A stretch of 20,000 nucleotides of DNA from an uncultured virus (IMG/VR IMGVR_UViG_3300036835_000208) (Duplodnaviria; Heunggongvirae; Uroviricota; Caudoviricetes), in IMG/VR virus record IMGVR_UViG_3300036835_000208, one strand, 5' to 3'. The position numbers and the translations under genes are program-made. Under the pieces are notes generated by a model. The model saw nothing but the letters and a program-made list of their open reading frames with translations, searched no databases and had not been told where the DNA came from. Below are positions 1 to 18,076 of the stretch, in pieces (position 1 is the first letter of the stretch; each line of letters starts with the position of its first letter).

Positions 1-5
1 CGACC

Positions 6-206
6 GGCTCCAGGAGGAGCCATACCGGCCGCCGTTCGATTGCCGTACAGCCGCGATGCGGCACGCTCCTGAAAACGGAGCCATGCTGCCTCGCTCTTGC
101 GCAAGTTGCTTCCCGTGTGAGTCATTCGTGAACTAGCTCCATTCCGGAGCTGCTCTCATTCAAGTCTCCCCCATGCCTGCGAATCGGCTCCATGCGGGAG
201 CCATGC
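6..206. repeat. Array of four short palindromes GCTCC-N4-7-GGAGC
   Basis: GGCTCC-agga-GGAGCC (6-21), GCTCC-tgaaaac-GGAGC (65-81), AGCTCC-attcc-GGAGCT (135-151), GGCTCC-atgcg-GGAGCC (186-202). Three continue as GGAGCCAT. Unique sequence lies between them. Confidence 0.7.
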
Positions 207-337
207 AAAACGCACACATCAGGGGATTACCGATTAGTGCGCTGGAGTCCTAACGGCCGTGAGGCGGTTTCGTGAATCCCTTGCGGGGCACTTGACGTCC
301 TCCAGCTATGTCCGCCCCGCGCCTGCGAGGCAGGCAG

Positions 338-365
338 AGCTTACACCCTGCACAGGAAATTGCAA
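338..365 (-). promoter_or_regulatory. Possible leftward sigma70-type promoter
   Basis: Minus strand reads TTGCAA-16 nt-TAAGCT. It is divergent from the promoter at 408-436. Confidence 0.35.
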
Positions 366-407
366 GCCCTACCGTCGCGGGCGCAATTATCGGGACAGTC
401 TAATTTC

Positions 408-436
408 TTGACAGACGGGCTCGGGGCTGTTACCGT
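408..436 (+). promoter_or_regulatory. Rightward sigma70/SigA-type promoter
   Basis: TTGACA (408-413), 17-nt spacer, TACCGT (431-436), with an extended -10 TG. A TGTAATT box follows at 451-457, as in the early promoters. Confidence 0.75.
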
Positions 437-442
437 TAGCCG

Positions 443-1130
443 CAGCATGATGTAATTAGTAGCGGTAAGTAGCGGGTCGGATTAGAGCGCAGGATTATAA
501 TTACAATCTATAGCAGATTGTTTTTGTATTCCTGCAGGGATTGGCCGGGACTATCGCCAGCTCAATTCCATCCCATTAATTACATCATCTCAGCGAAATA
601 CGGGTTTGGCAAATTGAGCCACCCGGGAGCGGGTCGCCCTGACACCAGCCAGACACCGGAATTTTTGCTCAATTTTTTGGGCCTCGGCCGGAGAGGAGGG
701 ATGCTCGGCAACGTGGAGGCCTGGTCTGCCGCGCGGACAGGGGAGAGAACCCACGTGGACTCTCCTCTCCAGTCGTCTGGCCCGCTTACGATCCTAGCAG
801 CTCTCTGTGCATTCCTCTTGCGTCGGCGCGTCGGCAGTTGTGGAGCTAGGATCACCTGGCCCGGAGGCTGAGGGAGCTTCCTGTAGTTATCTGTACCAAT
901 ACGGCCAGTATCCCGGTGCGCGGATGACACAGGAGGCTCTCTGAGCCCCTGCGAGGCCCCGGGGGTAGGTCTGACTAGGGTTCGACCTACGATCGCCTGA
1001 GAATGGCTCCTGTGCCCGTACAGAGGCATATTCCCGTGACTGCTCAGACTTGGCGCTCGGAGCGGCGCGGCGTCAGAATTCGAGACCGACGTTAATACCG
1101 ACGCCGATCCCAGGGCAGGCAATTAACTAG
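443..1130 (+). ncRNA. Candidate large structured non-coding RNA (~690 nt), family not recognised
   Basis: Begins at the predicted TSS of the 408-436 promoter and lacks a convincing long ORF. At least eight helices tile the region, e.g. 447-460/575-588, 611-619/667-675, 790-798/845-853, 871-884/929-942, 965-971/984-990, 1068-1074/1100-1106. Their G-U wobbles work on the plus strand. The 3' boundary is approximate. Confidence 0.5.
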
Positions 1131-1131
1131 A

Positions 1132-1176
1132 GGAAAAGCAAAGAGCCCCGGGATGTGAGTCCCGAGGCTCTCGCTT
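1132..1176 (-). terminator. Intrinsic terminator closing the minus-strand early operon (possibly bidirectional)
   Basis: Minus strand: GAGAGCCTCGGGA-ctcaca-TCCCGGGGCTCT followed by TTGCTTTTCC, about 100 nt downstream of the last minus-strand gene. Confidence 0.75.
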
Positions 1177-1276
1177 GTGACTTACCCGGACGGTCTCAGC
1201 CGTTAATGGTGCCGGGTCATCACGCTCCGATATGGGGATAGCCGCATCGGAACTTTGACACACACAGGAAGAACCT

Positions 1277-1771
1277 TCACAGTAGCACAGGCTGGAAGAT
1301 AGCGGCGACCGTAACTCTCAGTACATTCTTTTTCAGCGGCGTCACTCGATGTTCCCACTGGCTAGGAAACACTACTAGGTCTCCATAAATAGCAGGACAG
1401 AGAGTAGGCATCCTGGCAATCGGGTTTCTTCTCGGTTTCTTTATTTGTAGCGCGCCGCCGTCTGTCTTGTAATCAAGGTTGCTGAGAAAGAGCGTGGCGC
1501 TGAGTGTGTCCGGCCTGCCTTCCCTATGCCATCCAAAGTCATGGCTCTGGCGCGTGAGGATGTGAACCCTGCAGCCGCCGACGCCTGACATCAGCTCCAT
1601 CGGATGATCGGCCAGCGTGGAGGCGATACCCTCCAGAGTCGGCGCGAGCTGTTCCCACCAGGGGATACTCGTACGGTCTCGCATCTCGGGCTTGTCACCT
1701 GGCTTCAGATCCTCGGCCAGCCAGCCATCGGAAACAAAATTGATAAGCGGAGCAAGAGTCAGTCGGATCAT
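1277..1771 (-). CDS. 2OG-Fe(II) oxygenase (prolyl-4-hydroxylase/PKHD-like)
   Basis: FGWHRE (Hx[D/E]), LSATLFL, GGAL, GDLVVFPS-WEHRVTP (distal His) and a downstream R-x-T. ATGA-coupled to the upstream gene. Confidence 0.85.
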   Translation of the reverse strand: MIRLTLAPLINFVSDGWLAEDLKPGDKPEMRDRTSIPWWEQLAPTLEGIASTLADHPMELMSGVGGCRVHILTRQSHDFGWHREGRPDTLSATLFLSNLDYKTDGGALQIKKPRRNPIARMPTLCPAIYGDLVVFPSQWEHRVTPLKKNVLRVTVAAIFQPVLL

Positions 1772-1950
1772 CTTTTTTCCTCGGTCGCCTTATCCTGCTC
1801 CTCTTTCCAGATCCGTGCCCGTAAACGCTCGCCCGCTTCCCATTGCCGTATCTGCTGCTCCCTACTTGGGCCAATGATCCCAAGCAAGAGCACAATACCA
1901 ATACCTACAAATACGACCAAGAAGATCATGTCATAAACAATTCCCATCAC
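1768..1950 (-). CDS. Small single-pass membrane protein
   Basis: Hydrophobic IFLVVFVGIGIVLLLGIIG followed by a charged helix; abuts both neighbours. Confidence 0.7.
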   Translation of the reverse strand: MMGIVYDMIFLVVFVGIGIVLLLGIIGPSREQQIRQWEAGERLRARIWKEEQDKATEEKR

Positions 1951-2193
1951 TCAGTTCACCGGCCTTGCGATGATTGCATCGGCCTCTTGCTCAGACCGGA
2001 TGCGCAGGATTACTGCCTCTGCTGTTTTCACAGACATCTTAGTGCCAAGTTGAAAACCGACCTCATACATCTGTCTGTCTGGAGTAATGACAAGAGCAGC
2101 CATCGGGGCCAAGAAGGATTGCACATTCTTGAACTCTACGATGTACTCTCCATCCCCGTACATATAACCGCCTAGATAATTTACCGTTGCCAT
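1951..2193 (-). CDS. Hypothetical early protein
   Basis: 80-aa ORF whose ATG directly follows AGGGGATAGC and its own promoter. Confidence 0.75.
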   Translation of the reverse strand: MATVNYLGGYMYGDGEYIVEFKNVQSFLAPMAALVITPDRQMYEVGFQLGTKMSVKTAEAVILRIRSEQEADAIIARPVN

Positions 2194-2227
2194 GCTATCC
2201 CCTTTGGTCGAATTACCTTATAGCCCT

Positions 2228-2256
2228 ACGGTAGCATAATTACATCTAGCTGTCAG
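2228..2256 (-). promoter_or_regulatory. Early promoter cassette, copy 1
   Basis: CTGACA-17 nt (containing TGTAATT)-TACCGT, then GGTAATT and AGGGGATAGC-ATG. Confidence 0.65.
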
Positions 2257-2590
2257 CCTGAACGTAGTAGGTCTGACCAAGAAACTCCACAGTCATGTAA
2301 TCCCTCTTCAGCGCGTCGGCTGCTGCTTCCCAGTCAATATGATAGAGCGGCCACCCGATTTCCCTAGGAACAGCACCGATGTCCTCGGCTAGCTCTTGCG
2401 CATACTCCGTGAAATAGTCCTCCCGGATCAAAGTTGCCCCGTCGTACCAGTCCGGGATACCATCGTCAATCAGAGATTCGATTGCCTGCAACCGCTCACG
2501 TTCCTCCTCCCCAAGATCATCCTTATCCTGGAGAAGCAGATTCAATTCGTCAATCAGACACCGGCTGTCAATAATCCTATCGTCAGTCAT
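2246..2590 (-). CDS. ArdA-like antirestriction (DNA mimic) protein
   Basis: Start reassigned to MTDDRIID after AGGGGATAGC. Very acidic. FTEYAQELAED...HIDWEAAADALKRDY..VEFLGQTYY resembles the ArdA C-terminal signature. Confidence 0.7.
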   Translation of the reverse strand: MTDDRIIDSRCLIDELNLLLQDKDDLGEEERERLQAIESLIDDGIPDWYDGATLIREDYFTEYAQELAEDIGAVPREIGWPLYHIDWEAAADALKRDYMTVEFLGQTYYVQADS

Positions 2591-2633
2591 TTTGCTATCC
2601 CCTCTCGTTCGCTGATTACATCTTACTCGCTCT

Positions 2634-2662
2634 AGGATACACAATTACACTTTACCTGTCAA
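2634..2662 (-). promoter_or_regulatory. Early promoter cassette, copy 2
   Basis: TTGACA-ggtaaagTGTAATTgtg-TATCCT (17-nt spacer), then TGTAATC and AGGGGATAGC. Confidence 0.8.
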
Positions 2663-2820
2663 GACTCCTCGCGCGGCTGTACTGCGACAAATTCCCAAGG
2701 GCTACCGTAGACGTGACTCAGTGCGTCGCCATCGCTCTCTGCAACCTCCTCCTCACTGAATGGCCCGTACAGCGTCAGACCGTCAAAGGCATTACCGACT
2801 GCCAAAATATAATCCTTCAT
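2659..2820 (-). CDS. 53-aa acidic hypothetical protein (not in the ORF track)
   Basis: AGGGGATAGCAAA-ATG; MKDYILAVGNAFDGLTLYGPFSEEEVAESDGDALSHVYGSPWEFVAVQPREES; fills the intergenic gap exactly. Confidence 0.75.
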   Translation of the reverse strand: MKDYILAVGNAFDGLTLYGPFSEEEVAESDGDALSHVYGSPWEFVAVQPREES

Positions 2821-2834
2821 TTTGCTATCCCCTT

Positions 2835-3287
2835 TCAGGCCCGAACCCAGGCGTCGAATTCATTTATATAAACAGATTCAATCATCTCTACAGGAATGTA
2901 ATCGGCAGTAGCGCGAGCATAGCGCTCGAAGCGTCTCCACCTTGCCAGGTCGATCGCATCCCAATCCTCCACATCGCTGAGACCGGCTACCGCAGCCCAG
3001 CCTCCAGAACGGCCCTCACTGTAGACTTTGACACTATTATCGGGCCAGATTTCCTCGGCCTCCTGCTGAAGATCCTCCCACCTGTACTCACAGGTGCCCC
3101 AAAAGAGCGAATCAATCTGCTCCTCACTTACATGCTGTTCGATCCACTTCTGTGTGAAGTGAGGATTGGCATTCGGGTTTTCCTTCTGCCACTTGGGCAA
3201 GCCCGACCACAAACCGCTATGCACCTTCACGTTCGCGGCAGGCATCCCGCTGCGTGAGTCAACGTCCTGTTTCGTATACGTCCGCAT
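2835..3287 (-). CDS. Hypothetical phage early protein with GRSGGW motif
   Basis: Start reassigned to MRTYTKQ after AGGGGATAGC; Trp- and acid-rich; SEGRSGGW motif. Confidence 0.75.
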   Translation of the reverse strand: MRTYTKQDVDSRSGMPAANVKVHSGLWSGLPKWQKENPNANPHFTQKWIEQHVSEEQIDSLFWGTCEYRWEDLQQEAEEIWPDNSVKVYSEGRSGGWAAVAGLSDVEDWDAIDLARWRRFERYARATADYIPVEMIESVYINEFDAWVRA

Positions 3288-3498
3288 TTTTGCTATCCCC
3301 TCTCTCAAACCGCGCAGTGAGAATATCGTTCTCATTGTTAATTGGAAGCCCTGGGTCAGCCAGGCTGAAGCCAGCCGCAGGAGTTACATAGAAAATACTA
3401 CGCTCTCCTAGCTTGTCCCAAGACAGGACAACAAAACCGACAGGCGTCTCTACTAGCACCTGCTCCCGGGGCTCTGTGAGCTTAACAGTTACGGCCAT
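3259..3498 (-). CDS. Hypothetical protein
   Basis: Start reassigned to MAVTVKL, preceded by GAGGGTGGGATAAC (motif variant); beta-rich composition. Confidence 0.6.
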   Translation of the reverse strand: MAVTVKLTEPREQVLVETPVGFVVLSWDKLGERSIFYVTPAAGFSLADPGLPINNENDILTARFERGDSKNADVYETGR

Positions 3499-3503
3499 TT
3501 CAG

Positions 3504-3740
3504 TTATCCCACCCTCTCGAACGGCGACGAGAAATGCAGCAGCGCACCGGGAGGGAACGGGGCCTGTAGATCCTCCCCAAACCATTCCTGGAGCCGCTCA
3601 AGCGTATCGGGCTCCTCGTCCACGTCTATGCGCGTATCTGTCTCGAAGCAGTGAATCAGGTAGGTATTCACGAACCCATGCTTCCACGCTGCATCAAACG
3701 CTACGCGCTTATTTCCTTTTACAATCAGTGACCTTCTCAC
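3504..3740 (-). CDS. Hypothetical early protein
   Basis: GTG start one base after AGGGGATAGC, directly downstream of promoter cassette copy 3. Confidence 0.75.
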   Translation of the reverse strand: MRRSLIVKGNKRVAFDAAWKHGFVNTYLIHCFETDTRIDVDEEPDTLERLQEWFGEDLQAPFPPGALLHFSSPFERVG

Positions 3741-3776
3741 GGCTATCCCCTCTCACTCGAATTACACACTGAGCGG

Positions 3777-3805
3777 AGTCTACAGAATTACACTTCACCT
3801 GTCAA
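3777..3805 (-). promoter_or_regulatory. Early promoter cassette, copy 3
   Basis: TTGACA-ggtgaagTGTAATTctg-TAGACT (17-nt spacer), then TGTAATT and AGGGGATAGC; near-identical to 2634-2662. Confidence 0.8.
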
Positions 3806-3818
3806 GCCCGTGCTATCG

Positions 3819-4841
3819 TCACCGTGTCCAGCTATAGGCTCGACTCGGGTGAAGCAGTAGCGGGAGACTTTCATCTCCTACTATTGTTTCCTCGATCCAA
3901 ACCTGCCTATGCATCTTCAGAGAGGGATAAAATTGATTGCGCCAATGACCGACACGATAGTGGCGATAGTGCAGCTCGCGTTTTCCCTCACCATTTTCTT
4001 TCGGTATGCGTACTGATTCTCGCCGCAGTCTGACCACGAGCACGCCCAGGTTCTCCACATCCCGGCGGATGGCACGCTTCCTGACACCGCGTGGTGCATC
4101 AATTTTTTGGACGACTGCGACCTTCTGAGCCATCATCCGGAAGAAGGTCTGCAGCGTGGCCCAGAGGCCCGCGTAATACTGCCTGAAGGCAGGATCGACA
4201 AGACGGCCCAAGCGATCTCCAGTCTCCGGGAGCGCATCCACCACCGCCTGTGTATCTGCCATCTCCTGCTCGAAGCTGAGACCAAAGGTGAGCTGCGTAT
4301 GGTGGAACAGAGACCACTTTGTCTCACCTGCCCACGCTCCACCCATCTTTTTCAATTCAAGATATGGCTCCAGGAAGTCATCCAGGCCGACATCATCGTC
4401 GTGACTGTAAATAGAGAAATGGACGCCATCACGTTCTTTGCCAGTGCCCATATCGACTGCGCGCGTATGCGCCCAAGCGATAGCTCTCGCAGCGGCGCGG
4501 CCCGCATAGCTATCGTAAACAATCAGAGGCGACCCATCCCCGGGGGTACCGAGGATGGCAAACCCGGGGGCGATGAAGAGGTCGGATTCCACGAACGGCT
4601 CGGGCTGGAAGCTCTCAGCGGCGTGAACGATCAGATCCTTGACCTCACCGGATATCCACATCGGAGCCCCGTATTTCATTTTGCCAGCTTCCAAAGCACA
4701 CATCACCTCGGGCTCCAGAGCAGCGCAGCCGTACTTTTCTAAATTACTCTTTTGCCAGCCAGTAGCAAAACTATGGCCCGGCTTGCTAGTCCAGAACTGA
4801 GCCAGCTCGGTCTTGGCATCCAGTGCGTCGTACCAACTCAT
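3819..4841 (-). CDS. 340-aa phage protein with C-terminal H-x-R-x-GHWR-x-Q motif
   Basis: Long ORF with AGGGGATAGCA-ATG; C-terminus HYRHYRVGHWRNQFYPSLKMHRQVWIEETIVG. Confidence 0.8.
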   Translation of the reverse strand: MSWYDALDAKTELAQFWTSKPGHSFATGWQKSNLEKYGCAALEPEVMCALEAGKMKYGAPMWISGEVKDLIVHAAESFQPEPFVESDLFIAPGFAILGTPGDGSPLIVYDSYAGRAAARAIAWAHTRAVDMGTGKERDGVHFSIYSHDDDVGLDDFLEPYLELKKMGGAWAGETKWSLFHHTQLTFGLSFEQEMADTQAVVDALPETGDRLGRLVDPAFRQYYAGLWATLQTFFRMMAQKVAVVQKIDAPRGVRKRAIRRDVENLGVLVVRLRRESVRIPKENGEGKRELHYRHYRVGHWRNQFYPSLKMHRQVWIEETIVGDESLPLLLHPSRAYSWTR

Positions 4842-4859
4842 TGCTATCCCCTTTTGAAA

Positions 4860-5042
4860 TTAAGCCCTGCGGAAGAAAATCTTAGCCAGCTCATCGGCCT
4901 GTGCCTTGGCGATGTTGAGCCCGAAGGTCAGCCGACGTAGATGGGCCATCGCCGGATCATCCAGCTTGGGGTCGTGCGGTACGGTTCGGTCGTACCACTC
5001 CTGCATGGACTCTTGCTCCGTGGCCCATTCGTAATCGCTCAC
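4860..5042 (-). CDS. Hypothetical protein
   Basis: 60 aa; GTGA overlap with the upstream stop; GGTGA-like RBS. Confidence 0.65.
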   Translation of the reverse strand: MSDYEWATEQESMQEWYDRTVPHDPKLDDPAMAHLRRLTFGLNIAKAQADELAKIFFRRA

Positions 5043-5329
5043 GTTCGTGTCACCTGCTTAATCGGTACCGTGCGCTCGTCAACTGGTTCCACCACAATTA
5101 CACTCAGTTTCGTCTCCTTTGTATTTGTCGGCTCGAACAGCAGAGTTAGATTCGCACCCTCCAGGGCATGATCGTCACATAGGTATGCGTTGCTTTCCGG
5201 TGCAAACATGGCAGCAGTCTTGCTCTTGTCCGGGTGCCCGTTATGCCAGACCCGACAGCGAACACCGATCCGGTTTTTCCCTTCTCGGGCACAGTTGTGG
5301 ACAATACAGAACGGATAACTGTCACTCAT
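5039..5329 (-). CDS. Small putative Zn-binding protein
   Basis: C-x4-C near the N-terminus and C-x2-H (LCDDH); RBS GAGGGAG. Confidence 0.7.
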   Translation of the reverse strand: MSDSYPFCIVHNCAREGKNRIGVRCRVWHNGHPDKSKTAAMFAPESNAYLCDDHALEGANLTLLFEPTNTKETKLSVIVVEPVDERTVPIKQVTRT

Positions 5330-5612
5330 ACTCCCTCATCTTTCTCCGTTGCGCTAGCTCGTCTGGCATCGGATCAGGAATGGTCGGGTCAGGATGATTG
5401 AACTCCCAATCCCGCATCCATATTTCCATTATCTCGTTTATTTCCTCTTGCCGTCTACCCTCACGGAGCGGAGCCAAGCACCAATTATTTACAGCTACCC
5501 CGATTCCGACGATGACTGGTAGCACGAGCCAACAGAGCGCAGCATCCCATGCGCTGTAGGCCAGCATCGTGATTAGACCGGCGATCCAGAACATCCACAG
5601 AAGTATTTTCAT
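5322..5612 (-). CDS. Two-helix membrane protein
   Basis: Probable start MKILLWMFW; two hydrophobic segments, then an acidic/Pro-rich tail. The start is uncertain (no clear RBS). Confidence 0.6.
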   Translation of the reverse strand: MKILLWMFWIAGLITMLAYSAWDAALCWLVLPVIVGIGVAVNNWCLAPLREGRRQEEINEIMEIWMRDWEFNHPDPTIPDPMPDELAQRRKMREYE

Positions 5613-17814: not shown

Positions 17815-17839
17815 TGTCCCTCCTTCGCTGTAAGGTCTC

Positions 17840-17900
17840 CTGTGGCCACGGATGCCCTAGGGTTGTTCGGGAGATATACCCCGGGGCTCCGTGGCCTCAG
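17840..17900 (-). other. Long intergenic stem-loop upstream of HU
   Basis: GGCCACGGA/TCCGTGGCC plus GCCC-GGGGT/ACCCT-GGGC; about 21 pairs with a 14-nt loop. Confidence 0.65.
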
Positions 17901-17908
17901 CGGGCCTC

Positions 17909-18076
17909 CTAGCGGCCGTACTCGGGCCGCGTTTCCCGGTTGTCCTGCGACTGATCGCGCGGGGGAGTAGGAGAGATGATCTTGACGGGGGTCTCTCTGG
18001 CACCGCCGCCCACGATCGTCACTCCCTTGGGCCTGCCCGGTTGCCCGGTCAGAATTTTCACCTTCTGCTCGCTCAT
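17909..18076 (-). CDS. 55-aa hypothetical protein (not in the ORF track)
   Basis: ATGA overlap with the SSB stop; GGAGG SD; MSEQKVKILTGQPGRPKGVTIVGGGARETPVKIISPTPPRDQSQDNRETRPEYGR. Confidence 0.6.
   Translation of the reverse strand: MSEQKVKILTGQPGRPKGVTIVGGGARETPVKIISPTPPRDQSQDNRETRPEYGR

Follow-up and report, generated by a model that had tools for sequence, protein, structure and literature searches.

A candidate early structured non-coding RNA between the replication and terminase genes of an uncultured soil phage

The present analysis concerns a 20,000-nt stretch of DNA (hereafter, the window) from an uncultured soil phage of the class Caudoviricetes, recorded in IMG/VR as IMGVR_UViG_3300036835_000208, and in particular the element at positions 408 to 1130, for which a preliminary description had proposed a novel large non-coding RNA (ncRNA) of the plus strand with its own promoter. 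We regard this element as a credible candidate ncRNA and as an orphan. Positions 1-5456 match the end of a 44-kb IMG/VR contig (G001) with 99.96% identity and two differences; the longest contig with the same proteins points to a full genome of about 70.8 kb, and identity in DnaE to the nearest cultured phages is only about 28-32%. The phage sequence was furthermore traced in six soil DNA runs, two of which are possible sources, with 0.94-1.00 of the sampled words present.

Genomic setting and promoter

Nearly all genes of the phage lie on the minus strand. Read from right to left, their order starts with a DnaE-type polymerase, a UvsX-like recombinase, a Cas4-like nuclease and a helicase, followed by an ArdA-like protein and a 2OG-Fe(II) oxygenase (1277-1771, minus). 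The oxygenase gene is followed by a terminator (1172-1141, minus) and then by the non-coding gap, beyond which small genes, DUF932, a lambda-type gpA terminase and the structural genes are found. The gap belongs to an accessory region, hypervariable among relatives, that separates the early/replication genes from the terminase/late genes; it keeps 1.15 kb non-coding, while the genome is densely coding elsewhere. On its plus strand G exceeds C in 451-750 (skew +0.127), with the opposite seen in the flanking minus-strand genes; this agrees with the sense-strand bias of the other transcripts of this phage. Two promoter-like sites lie back to back at its left-hand side:

408 to 436, plus strand: early-class promoter, with the -35 box TTGACA at 408-413, a 17-nt spacer, TG at 428-429 and the -10 box TACCGT at 431-436
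386 to 414, minus strand: weaker promoter-like site of putative function (CTGTCA-17-GATAAT, 9 of 12 matches), directed toward small minus-strand genes

The pattern TTGACA-N17-TAnnnT occurs at exactly five sites in 58.6 kb of the genome (both strands), all of them intergenic, with the 17-nt spacer and TG one or two bases before the -10 box in every case. The site at 408-436 is the sole plus-strand member of this family. The four minus-strand sites (window 9328-9300, 6528-6500, 3804-3776 and 2661-2633) each have a gene within 6-43 nt. At two of them the ATG lies 6 nt past the -10 box, and the genes in question, the helicase gene and a 271-aa gene, therefore seem to lack leaders; at the other two, leaders of 35-42 nt are present, with GAGAGGGGATAGC common to both. 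The 38-kb late region is devoid of such sites. Since all five members are intergenic and all four on the minus strand precede genes, 408-436 can be assigned to the early promoter class of the phage. It is the only member without a gene behind it: downstream there is ATG-ATG-TAA only, and then a 14-bp stem from position 447. Transcription would be expected to start near 443-445. The TTGACA-17-TACCGT promoter of the preliminary description is thus present, with its TG and as the sole plus-strand copy, although its -10 box is weak and a sigma-70 scanner omitted the site. The GGCTCC-N-GGAGCC hairpins were also considered as a promoter family and were dismissed, having just two copies.

Coding potential and folding of the region

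Coding potential was assessed with a codon-usage log-odds score trained on 11 long genes. The score was positive, and a dip in GC at the second codon position (GC2) was present, in the 11 training genes and in nine of nine held-out genes. All open reading frames (ORFs) within 126-1276 scored negative and none had the GC2 dip. Both long ORFs (518-871, plus; 580-1122, minus) are broken by single-base strain indels, namely an extra G after 697 in one assembly and the loss of C1109, absent from two other assemblies; neither has a Pfam or PHROG family. The 180-aa minus-strand ORF had no match whatsoever, and the sole match of the 117-aa plus-strand ORF among 1.84 billion representatives was an identical predicted protein of 56 aa. 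A conserved ORF across the region, which the preliminary description had named among its refuting conditions, was not found. The earlier statement that it holds no convincing gene stands as far as codon usage is concerned, and has to be qualified for one feature:

701 to 871, plus strand: 56-aa orphan ORF, with GGAG 7 nt upstream and the start codon within a predicted helix (0.94)

Its codon score ranges from -0.07 to -0.13, GC by codon position is 0.61/0.63/0.67 without a GC2 dip, and the hydrophobic stretch of the peptide is only about 12 residues long and followed by RRR.

Folding energies were compared with those of dinucleotide shuffles, the number of which differs per stretch, and the resulting z-scores were as follows:

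436-1180: plus -9.8, minus -4.3 (20 shuffles)
444-1130: plus -5.6, minus -1.9 (50 shuffles)
444-960: plus -7.1, minus -2.2 (50 shuffles)
443-590: plus -6.8, minus -5.5 (200 shuffles)
590-676: plus -3.1, minus -1.6 (200 shuffles)
677-961: plus -4.75, minus -0.49 (40 shuffles)
862-950: plus -7.65, minus -2.66 (200 shuffles)
960-1130: plus -1.3, minus -1.4, i.e. about -1.3 on both strands (100 shuffles)

The region therefore has an excess of stability over shuffles that is stronger on the plus strand, as 444-960 illustrates; there, as well as in 444-1130, the native sequence was more stable than every one of 50 plus-strand shuffles. For comparison, z-scores ranged from +0.9 to -2.7 in six 745-nt windows taken as controls from coding regions. 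In a local scan of both strands of the 58.6 kb, 863-950 (plus) ranked second and 444-591 (plus) twelfth. The predicted plus-strand RNA can be divided as follows:

444 to 591, plus strand: Domain A, with a 14-bp AU-rich closing stem (447-460/575-588) and a branched interior; pair probabilities 0.96-0.99
592 to 676, plus strand: small branched domain (592-598/663-669, 604-610/648-654, 621-625/630-634; pair probabilities 0.85-0.99), then a run of six U
677 to 961, plus strand: multi-branch domain closed by 679-686/952-959, which includes 694-704/809-819, hairpin 739-768 and hairpin B; probabilities 0.76-1.0
962 to 1135, plus strand: 3' stretch without significant structure, where strain differences are located
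1136 to 1176, either strand: GC-rich hairpin (stem-loop 1141-1172) present in both converging transcripts; pair probability 0.97

Within Domain A, hairpin 489-535 holds the most AT-rich 40-mer of the 58.6 kb (494-533, GC 0.23). Hairpin B (862-950) has about 34 bp, G-U pairs included; its duplex and the 14-bp stem of Domain A look, in the predicted fold, like RNase III-type duplexes. Helix 694-704/809-819 sequesters AGGAGGG-AUG with a pair probability of 0.94.

All ten helices listed in the preliminary description pair exactly (90 bp, six G-U, no mismatches), and its remark that imperfect positions favour a plus-strand RNA was borne out, as G-U accounts for six of six non-Watson-Crick pairs on the plus strand. 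Seven of the ten reached a mean pair probability of at least 0.76 in the plus-strand ensemble of 444-1176, whereas three were out-competed, with probabilities of at most 0.02 (611-619/667-675, 790-798/845-853 and 1068-1074/1100-1106). The notion that helices tile the region end to end had to be given up, as 960-1130 is no more structured than its shuffles. The terminator at 1132-1176, on which the plus transcript was said to converge, serves the minus strand: hairpin 1141-1172 is the intrinsic terminator of the minus-strand oxygenase operon, listed by the scanner on the minus strand only, with its T-run on that strand and none following on the plus.

Very stable hairpins were also recorded at G001 22947-23055 (window -15667 to -15559, negative numbers lying left of the window; z -8.55 plus, -6.65 minus) and at window 17824-17915 (z -6.8 plus, -6.1 minus). 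Both are probably bidirectional terminators or intergenic palindromes.

Homologues, strain variation and RNA contigs

No known RNA family was recognised in the region, in line with the preliminary description: Rfam returned zero matches at E <= 1 in the 20-kb window, and for 380-1200 at E <= 10 (Rfam 15) only six chance-level ones, at 11.7-22.2 bits against gathering scores of 45-75. ARAGORN found no tRNA or tmRNA genes in the window. A distant blastn search of the phage collection gave no DNA homologue, and an exact 28-mer searched in IMG/VR led to the same phage only. A paralogue elsewhere in the genome was also sought and discarded, with short repeats only being found.

Relatives of the phage were approached through its proteins. 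Among 5.8 billion proteins the oxygenase had only two relatives, with 58% identity and on short contigs, and no loci related via oxygenase were found in viral or metagenome contigs. The left-hand ORF used as bait retrieved itself only, and the helicase retrieved relatives at 21-32% identity only, plus short fragments of 25 residues. The DnaE family, in turn, is large: 2,679 proteins at E <= 1e-50, with a best non-self identity of 67% and many members on contigs of 60-75 kb. Eight IMG/VR genomes (DnaE identity 52-59%), 68 metagenome loci found via terminase alignment (500,829 bases) and one contig binned in an Acidobacteria metagenome-assembled genome (MAG) were then used for comparison. In all of these, blastn and nhmmer searches for the region gave chance-level matches only (best blastn E 0.19). 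Covariance models of 444-591 (R1) and 862-950 (R2), run over 989,320 bases, found only the phage itself, the best non-self match having an E-value of 0.06. The homologues by which covariation was to be evaluated are thus lacking among related genomes and loci.

In the relatives the structural and replication modules are syntenic; hypervariable content occupies the space from the terminase to the replication genes. Three genomes (G003, G004 and G006) carry, in place of the gap, an opposite-strand cassette of an AAA_5 (MoxR-like) ATPase and DUF7192. The cassettes of three relatives lie at:

L032 16162-18467, plus strand: AAA_5 + DUF7192
L045 14597-16858, plus strand: AAA_5 + DUF7192
L035 2971-5580, minus strand: AAA_5 + DUF7192

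Upstream of these cassettes there are 1.8-2.5 kb without confident genes. The possibility that the gap is a decayed copy of such a cassette was rejected, as blastx yielded none in 126-1276. It should be added that the hypervariable region of a further relative (G010; L051 11205-11556, minus) contains a full-length tmRNA gene (57.6 bits, E 1e-19), and that an uncultured Acidobacteria MAG includes a 70.8-kb contig with a 55%-identical terminase (L128), hinting only weakly at Acidobacteria as the host phylum.

As for variation between strains, a minor strain has five single-nucleotide polymorphisms in 1024-1063, within the 3' stretch 962-1135. One turns a predicted A-U pair into G-U, two disrupt predicted pairs and two are at unpaired positions; they are uninformative on structure because the stretch is not reliably folded. 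To the right of the gap, a minor strain in DNA run X6 (depth 9.5 vs about 32) shows 17 differences in 1783-1969 and a joint skipping 1969-2194, by which an 80-aa gene at 1951-2193 is lost.

Three soil metatranscriptome runs, picked for matches in 1-1800, were compared with the window as assembled contigs. Two runs gave short contigs at 574-727 and 624-850, and two gave contigs at about -39 to 149. For the genes at 1277-4500 no contigs were obtained from any of the three runs; parts of the window without RNA contigs prove nothing, given how the runs were picked. The contigs hint only weakly at discrete RNAs.

Several observations were made to the left of the gap. On the minus strand from window 125 to -412 (L010 8202), the 158-aa ORF next to the gap is probably spurious, and three small genes fit better: a 52-aa gene (125 to -33) with a 50-aa homologue in relative G004 (39% identity, blastx E 1e-6), a strongly hydrophobic 34-aa peptide with an AGGAG Shine-Dalgarno sequence (-30 to -134) and a 93-aa gene (-131 to -412). 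Nested inverted repeats bracket this small-gene/DUF932 segment, with 145-181 matching L010 8151-8187 (37 nt, 86%) and 196-216 matching L010 6679-6699 (21 nt, 100%). The RNA contigs of two runs both stop at 147-149, the edge of the inner inverted repeat, consistent with a long-range duplex being processed by RNase III. Another reading of the repeats is inversion; in relative L098, DUF932 is flipped relative to the terminase. Further left, upstream of the terminase genes, L010 5730-7060 (window -2884 to -1554) is a second stretch of about 1.3 kb without a confident gene and with AT-rich patches, adjoining a possible plus-strand gene of 100 aa (L010 5427-5729); it may harbour the cos site expected of a gpA-type terminase.

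Interpretation and comparison with known systems

We favour the reading that the host RNA polymerase makes a non-coding plus-strand RNA from 408-436, with a core at 444-960 and specific to this phage lineage, and put its probability at roughly 0.6. The preliminary proposal of a new large ncRNA thus retains its early-type promoter, the lack of coding signal, the plus-specific stability and the RNA contigs at 574-850, whereas the predicted fold is not of the ornate GOLLD/ROOL kind and the 3' third lacks significant structure. Initiation at 408-436 would point against all neighbouring genes, and the RNA would start near 444 and reach 0.5-0.73 kb in total. Its structured core would consist of a branched 5' domain of 148 nt, a small middle domain and a multi-branch domain of 285 nt with the hairpin of about 34 bp, and the transcript may continue to, or through, hairpin 1141-1172; the 5' stem, right at the start, and this 3' hairpin would protect the RNA ends. 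Such a stable RNA, made early, would act in trans: its long near-perfect duplexes would form a platform to be bound or processed by some host or defence factor, whether as an RNase III-type substrate or as a decoy. The strand, the ends, any processing and the trans function of the transcript are what we infer. An accessory trans-acting RNA, a decoy or scaffold working as a duplex platform, is favoured tentatively and at well below even odds, because the region turns over fast and adjoins the ArdA-like gene; for the early structured ncRNA together with a trans-acting explanation as a whole we would give even odds. Two other roles were tried and set aside: a CsrA/RsmA sponge (22 GGA against 17.6 +/- 3.1 in shuffles, most of them paired) and antitoxin-like pairing of type I with the divergent mRNA (complementarity matched by 84 of 100 shuffles).

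A number of points weigh against this interpretation. The -10 box TACCGT matches TATAAT at just three of six positions, and the 56-aa ORF with its Shine-Dalgarno sequence lies inside the region. No search returned a homologue; hence there is neither covariation nor proof that the structure is under selection. At the position of the gap relatives have other content, and the stretches upstream of their cassettes are unstructured on the strand of the cassette, none of 62 windows reaching z <= -4. Domain A, with a z-score of -5.5 on the minus strand, could be a DNA-level inverted repeat. A plus-strand U-tract after hairpin 1141-1172 was not found, the plus-strand tail being TCGCTTGTGACTT, and the RNA contigs are short, of depth 2-3 (up to 5), and could come from either strand or from DNA carry-over. 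Other parts of the genome, within genes as well as between them, likewise contain hairpins with z-scores of -6 to -8.5; what is unusual here is the clustering of hairpins, their common strand preference and the non-coding setting.

Some of the same features might be read differently. An early-class promoter followed by the most AT-rich 40-mer of the genome, at a site where the direction of transcription locally switches and in a phage with its own DnaE polymerase, helicase and UvsX-like recombinase, recalls an R-loop origin of the T4 oriF/oriG type, in which RNA hybridised at the AT-rich element 50-100 nt downstream would prime the leading strand. Folding would then be secondary, or might tune hybrid formation, as in ColE1 RNA II. 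However, the AT-rich patch forms the paired tip of a stable hairpin and ranks only fifth to ninth at window sizes of 60-150 nt, strong plus-specific structure that an R-loop does not need extends 400 nt further, and iterons or repeats were not found; we hold such an origin to be distinctly improbable. The heptamer AATTACA, tried as an iteron, proved to be dispersed across the genome in 39 copies. The position of the element, exactly between the terminator of the early operon (1172-1141, minus) and the next minus-strand genes, would also suit a boundary or antisense RNA acting in cis, which would pair or collide with minus-strand read-through across 1130-408 and silence the small genes, DUF932 and terminase/late genes until the early promoters stop. 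Its promoter is of the class that serves the early genes and is absent from the late region, and early antisense RNAs proposed to silence late structural genes are described for PAK_P3 in the accessible text of PMC4933390. Against this, no overlap exists between 444-1135 and any gene accepted by the codon test, and only hairpin 1136-1176 is common to it and the converging operon; interference does not call for strong intramolecular folding, by which pairing would be slowed, complementarity to the divergent mRNA is at chance level (84 of 100 shuffles as good), and read-through of the terminator is an assumption. We consider this quite unlikely.

The folding could alternatively serve translation, the RNA being a structured mRNA for the ORF at 701-871, in which a 257-nt leader and helix 694-704/809-819 would close the ribosome-binding site until processing or refolding, as in type I toxins. 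The GGAG 7 nt before the ATG, the pairing of AGGAGGG-AUG, the presence of the ORF as a predicted 56-aa protein in a public library, the position of the strain insertion after 697, just before the ATG, which spares the ORF, and the hydrophobic stretch followed by RRR all agree with this. Low credence is nevertheless given to it, as the codon score is negative and the GC2 dip missing in contrast to all 20 accepted genes, the only match in the library is the identical sequence, the hydrophobic stretch is short and neither Pfam nor PHROG produced a match. Least probable, in our view, is the absence of any RNA function, with the hairpins as DNA-level inverted repeats (protein-binding sites or recombination scars) or as chance products in decaying accessory DNA and the promoter as a leftover. 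The region is hypervariable in relatives and holds other inverted repeats, Domain A is almost equally stable on the minus strand, similar hairpins exist elsewhere in the genome and conservation is confined to strains; yet the asymmetry of 677-961, the six of six wobble positions favouring the plus strand, an intact promoter that fits an active class and a non-coding 1.15 kb preserved almost unchanged in the six soil DNA runs speak for a functional RNA. Finally, we hold it unlikely that the early ncRNA favoured above represents an unseen class of large self-standing phage RNA made from an early host-type promoter within the anti-defence/accessory island, be it a decoy or trap, by way of its long duplex domains, for a host nuclease or immune sensor, or a structured RNA-II-like primer that defines the origin of the DnaE-encoding phage family.

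With its clear promoter class, clean non-coding status, strong strand-specific folding and accessory-gene setting, the candidate is a concrete target for Northern blotting, SHAPE and, via in vitro transcription, cryo-EM, even without a cultured host. Being a singleton, it offers neither covariation nor generality, and its value rests on experiment or deeper sequence mining. The by-products, i.e. the five-member early promoter family, the two apparently leaderless genes and a possible RNase III-processed small-gene cassette, are perhaps sooner useful for annotating this family of soil phages of about 70 kb.

Among known systems, type I toxin mRNAs (hok-like) are long structured transcripts that are made from a promoter of their own, encode a small ORF and have a helix closing the ribosome-binding site. 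The candidate resembles them in its promoter, in its small ORF and in the predicted helix that covers the ribosome-binding site; in contrast to them, its peptide lacks a convincing membrane helix, its codon usage is unlike that of the phage's genes, and neither an antisense partner nor homologues were identified. The minimal T4 origins oriF and oriG consist, according to the accessible text of PMC3016281, of a promoter and an AT-rich downstream element. The phage shares with them the promoter followed by an A+T-rich element near a local transcription switch, its own replisome and a UvsX-like recombinase. Unlike the minimal T4 origin, of about 100 bp and with a transcript that needs no structure, it has 500 nt of plus-specific structure at this point, and its promoter is sigma-70-like and not, as in T4, activator-dependent.

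A further comparison is offered by the antisense RNAs and TSS-defined ncRNA candidates of virulent Pseudomonas phages (PAK_P3, phiKZ, LUZ19 and others), which, in the accessible parts of PMC4933390 and PMC10914365, have their own start on the strand opposite to genes, are in some cases longer than 300 nt and are made early, as would be the present candidate; for PAK_P3, 12 early antisense RNAs exceed 300 bp (PMC4933390). As far as these parts of the sources go, all but one of the 20 antisense RNAs lie inside genes, structure is not a notable property of them, and the ncRNA candidates are conserved within genera, whereas the element described here is wholly intergenic, has stability as its main feature and was not found in relatives. 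The comparison with GOLLD and ROOL, named in the preliminary description as large phage ncRNAs, was not upheld. The candidate matches no Rfam model (E <= 1 for the window; E <= 10 for 380-1200), its predicted fold is a few long simple hairpins in place of an ornate pseudoknotted one, it has no tRNA gene in its window, while GOLLD and ROOL often occur near tRNA islands (accessible text of PMC12286853), and it is a singleton lineage, in contrast to their wide distribution. What it shares with these phage and prophage ncRNAs of unknown function, in so far as the same text describes them, is that it is phage-encoded, hundreds of nucleotides long and without coding capacity. Few such large structured phage RNAs are known, and they belong to the least understood of all RNAs.

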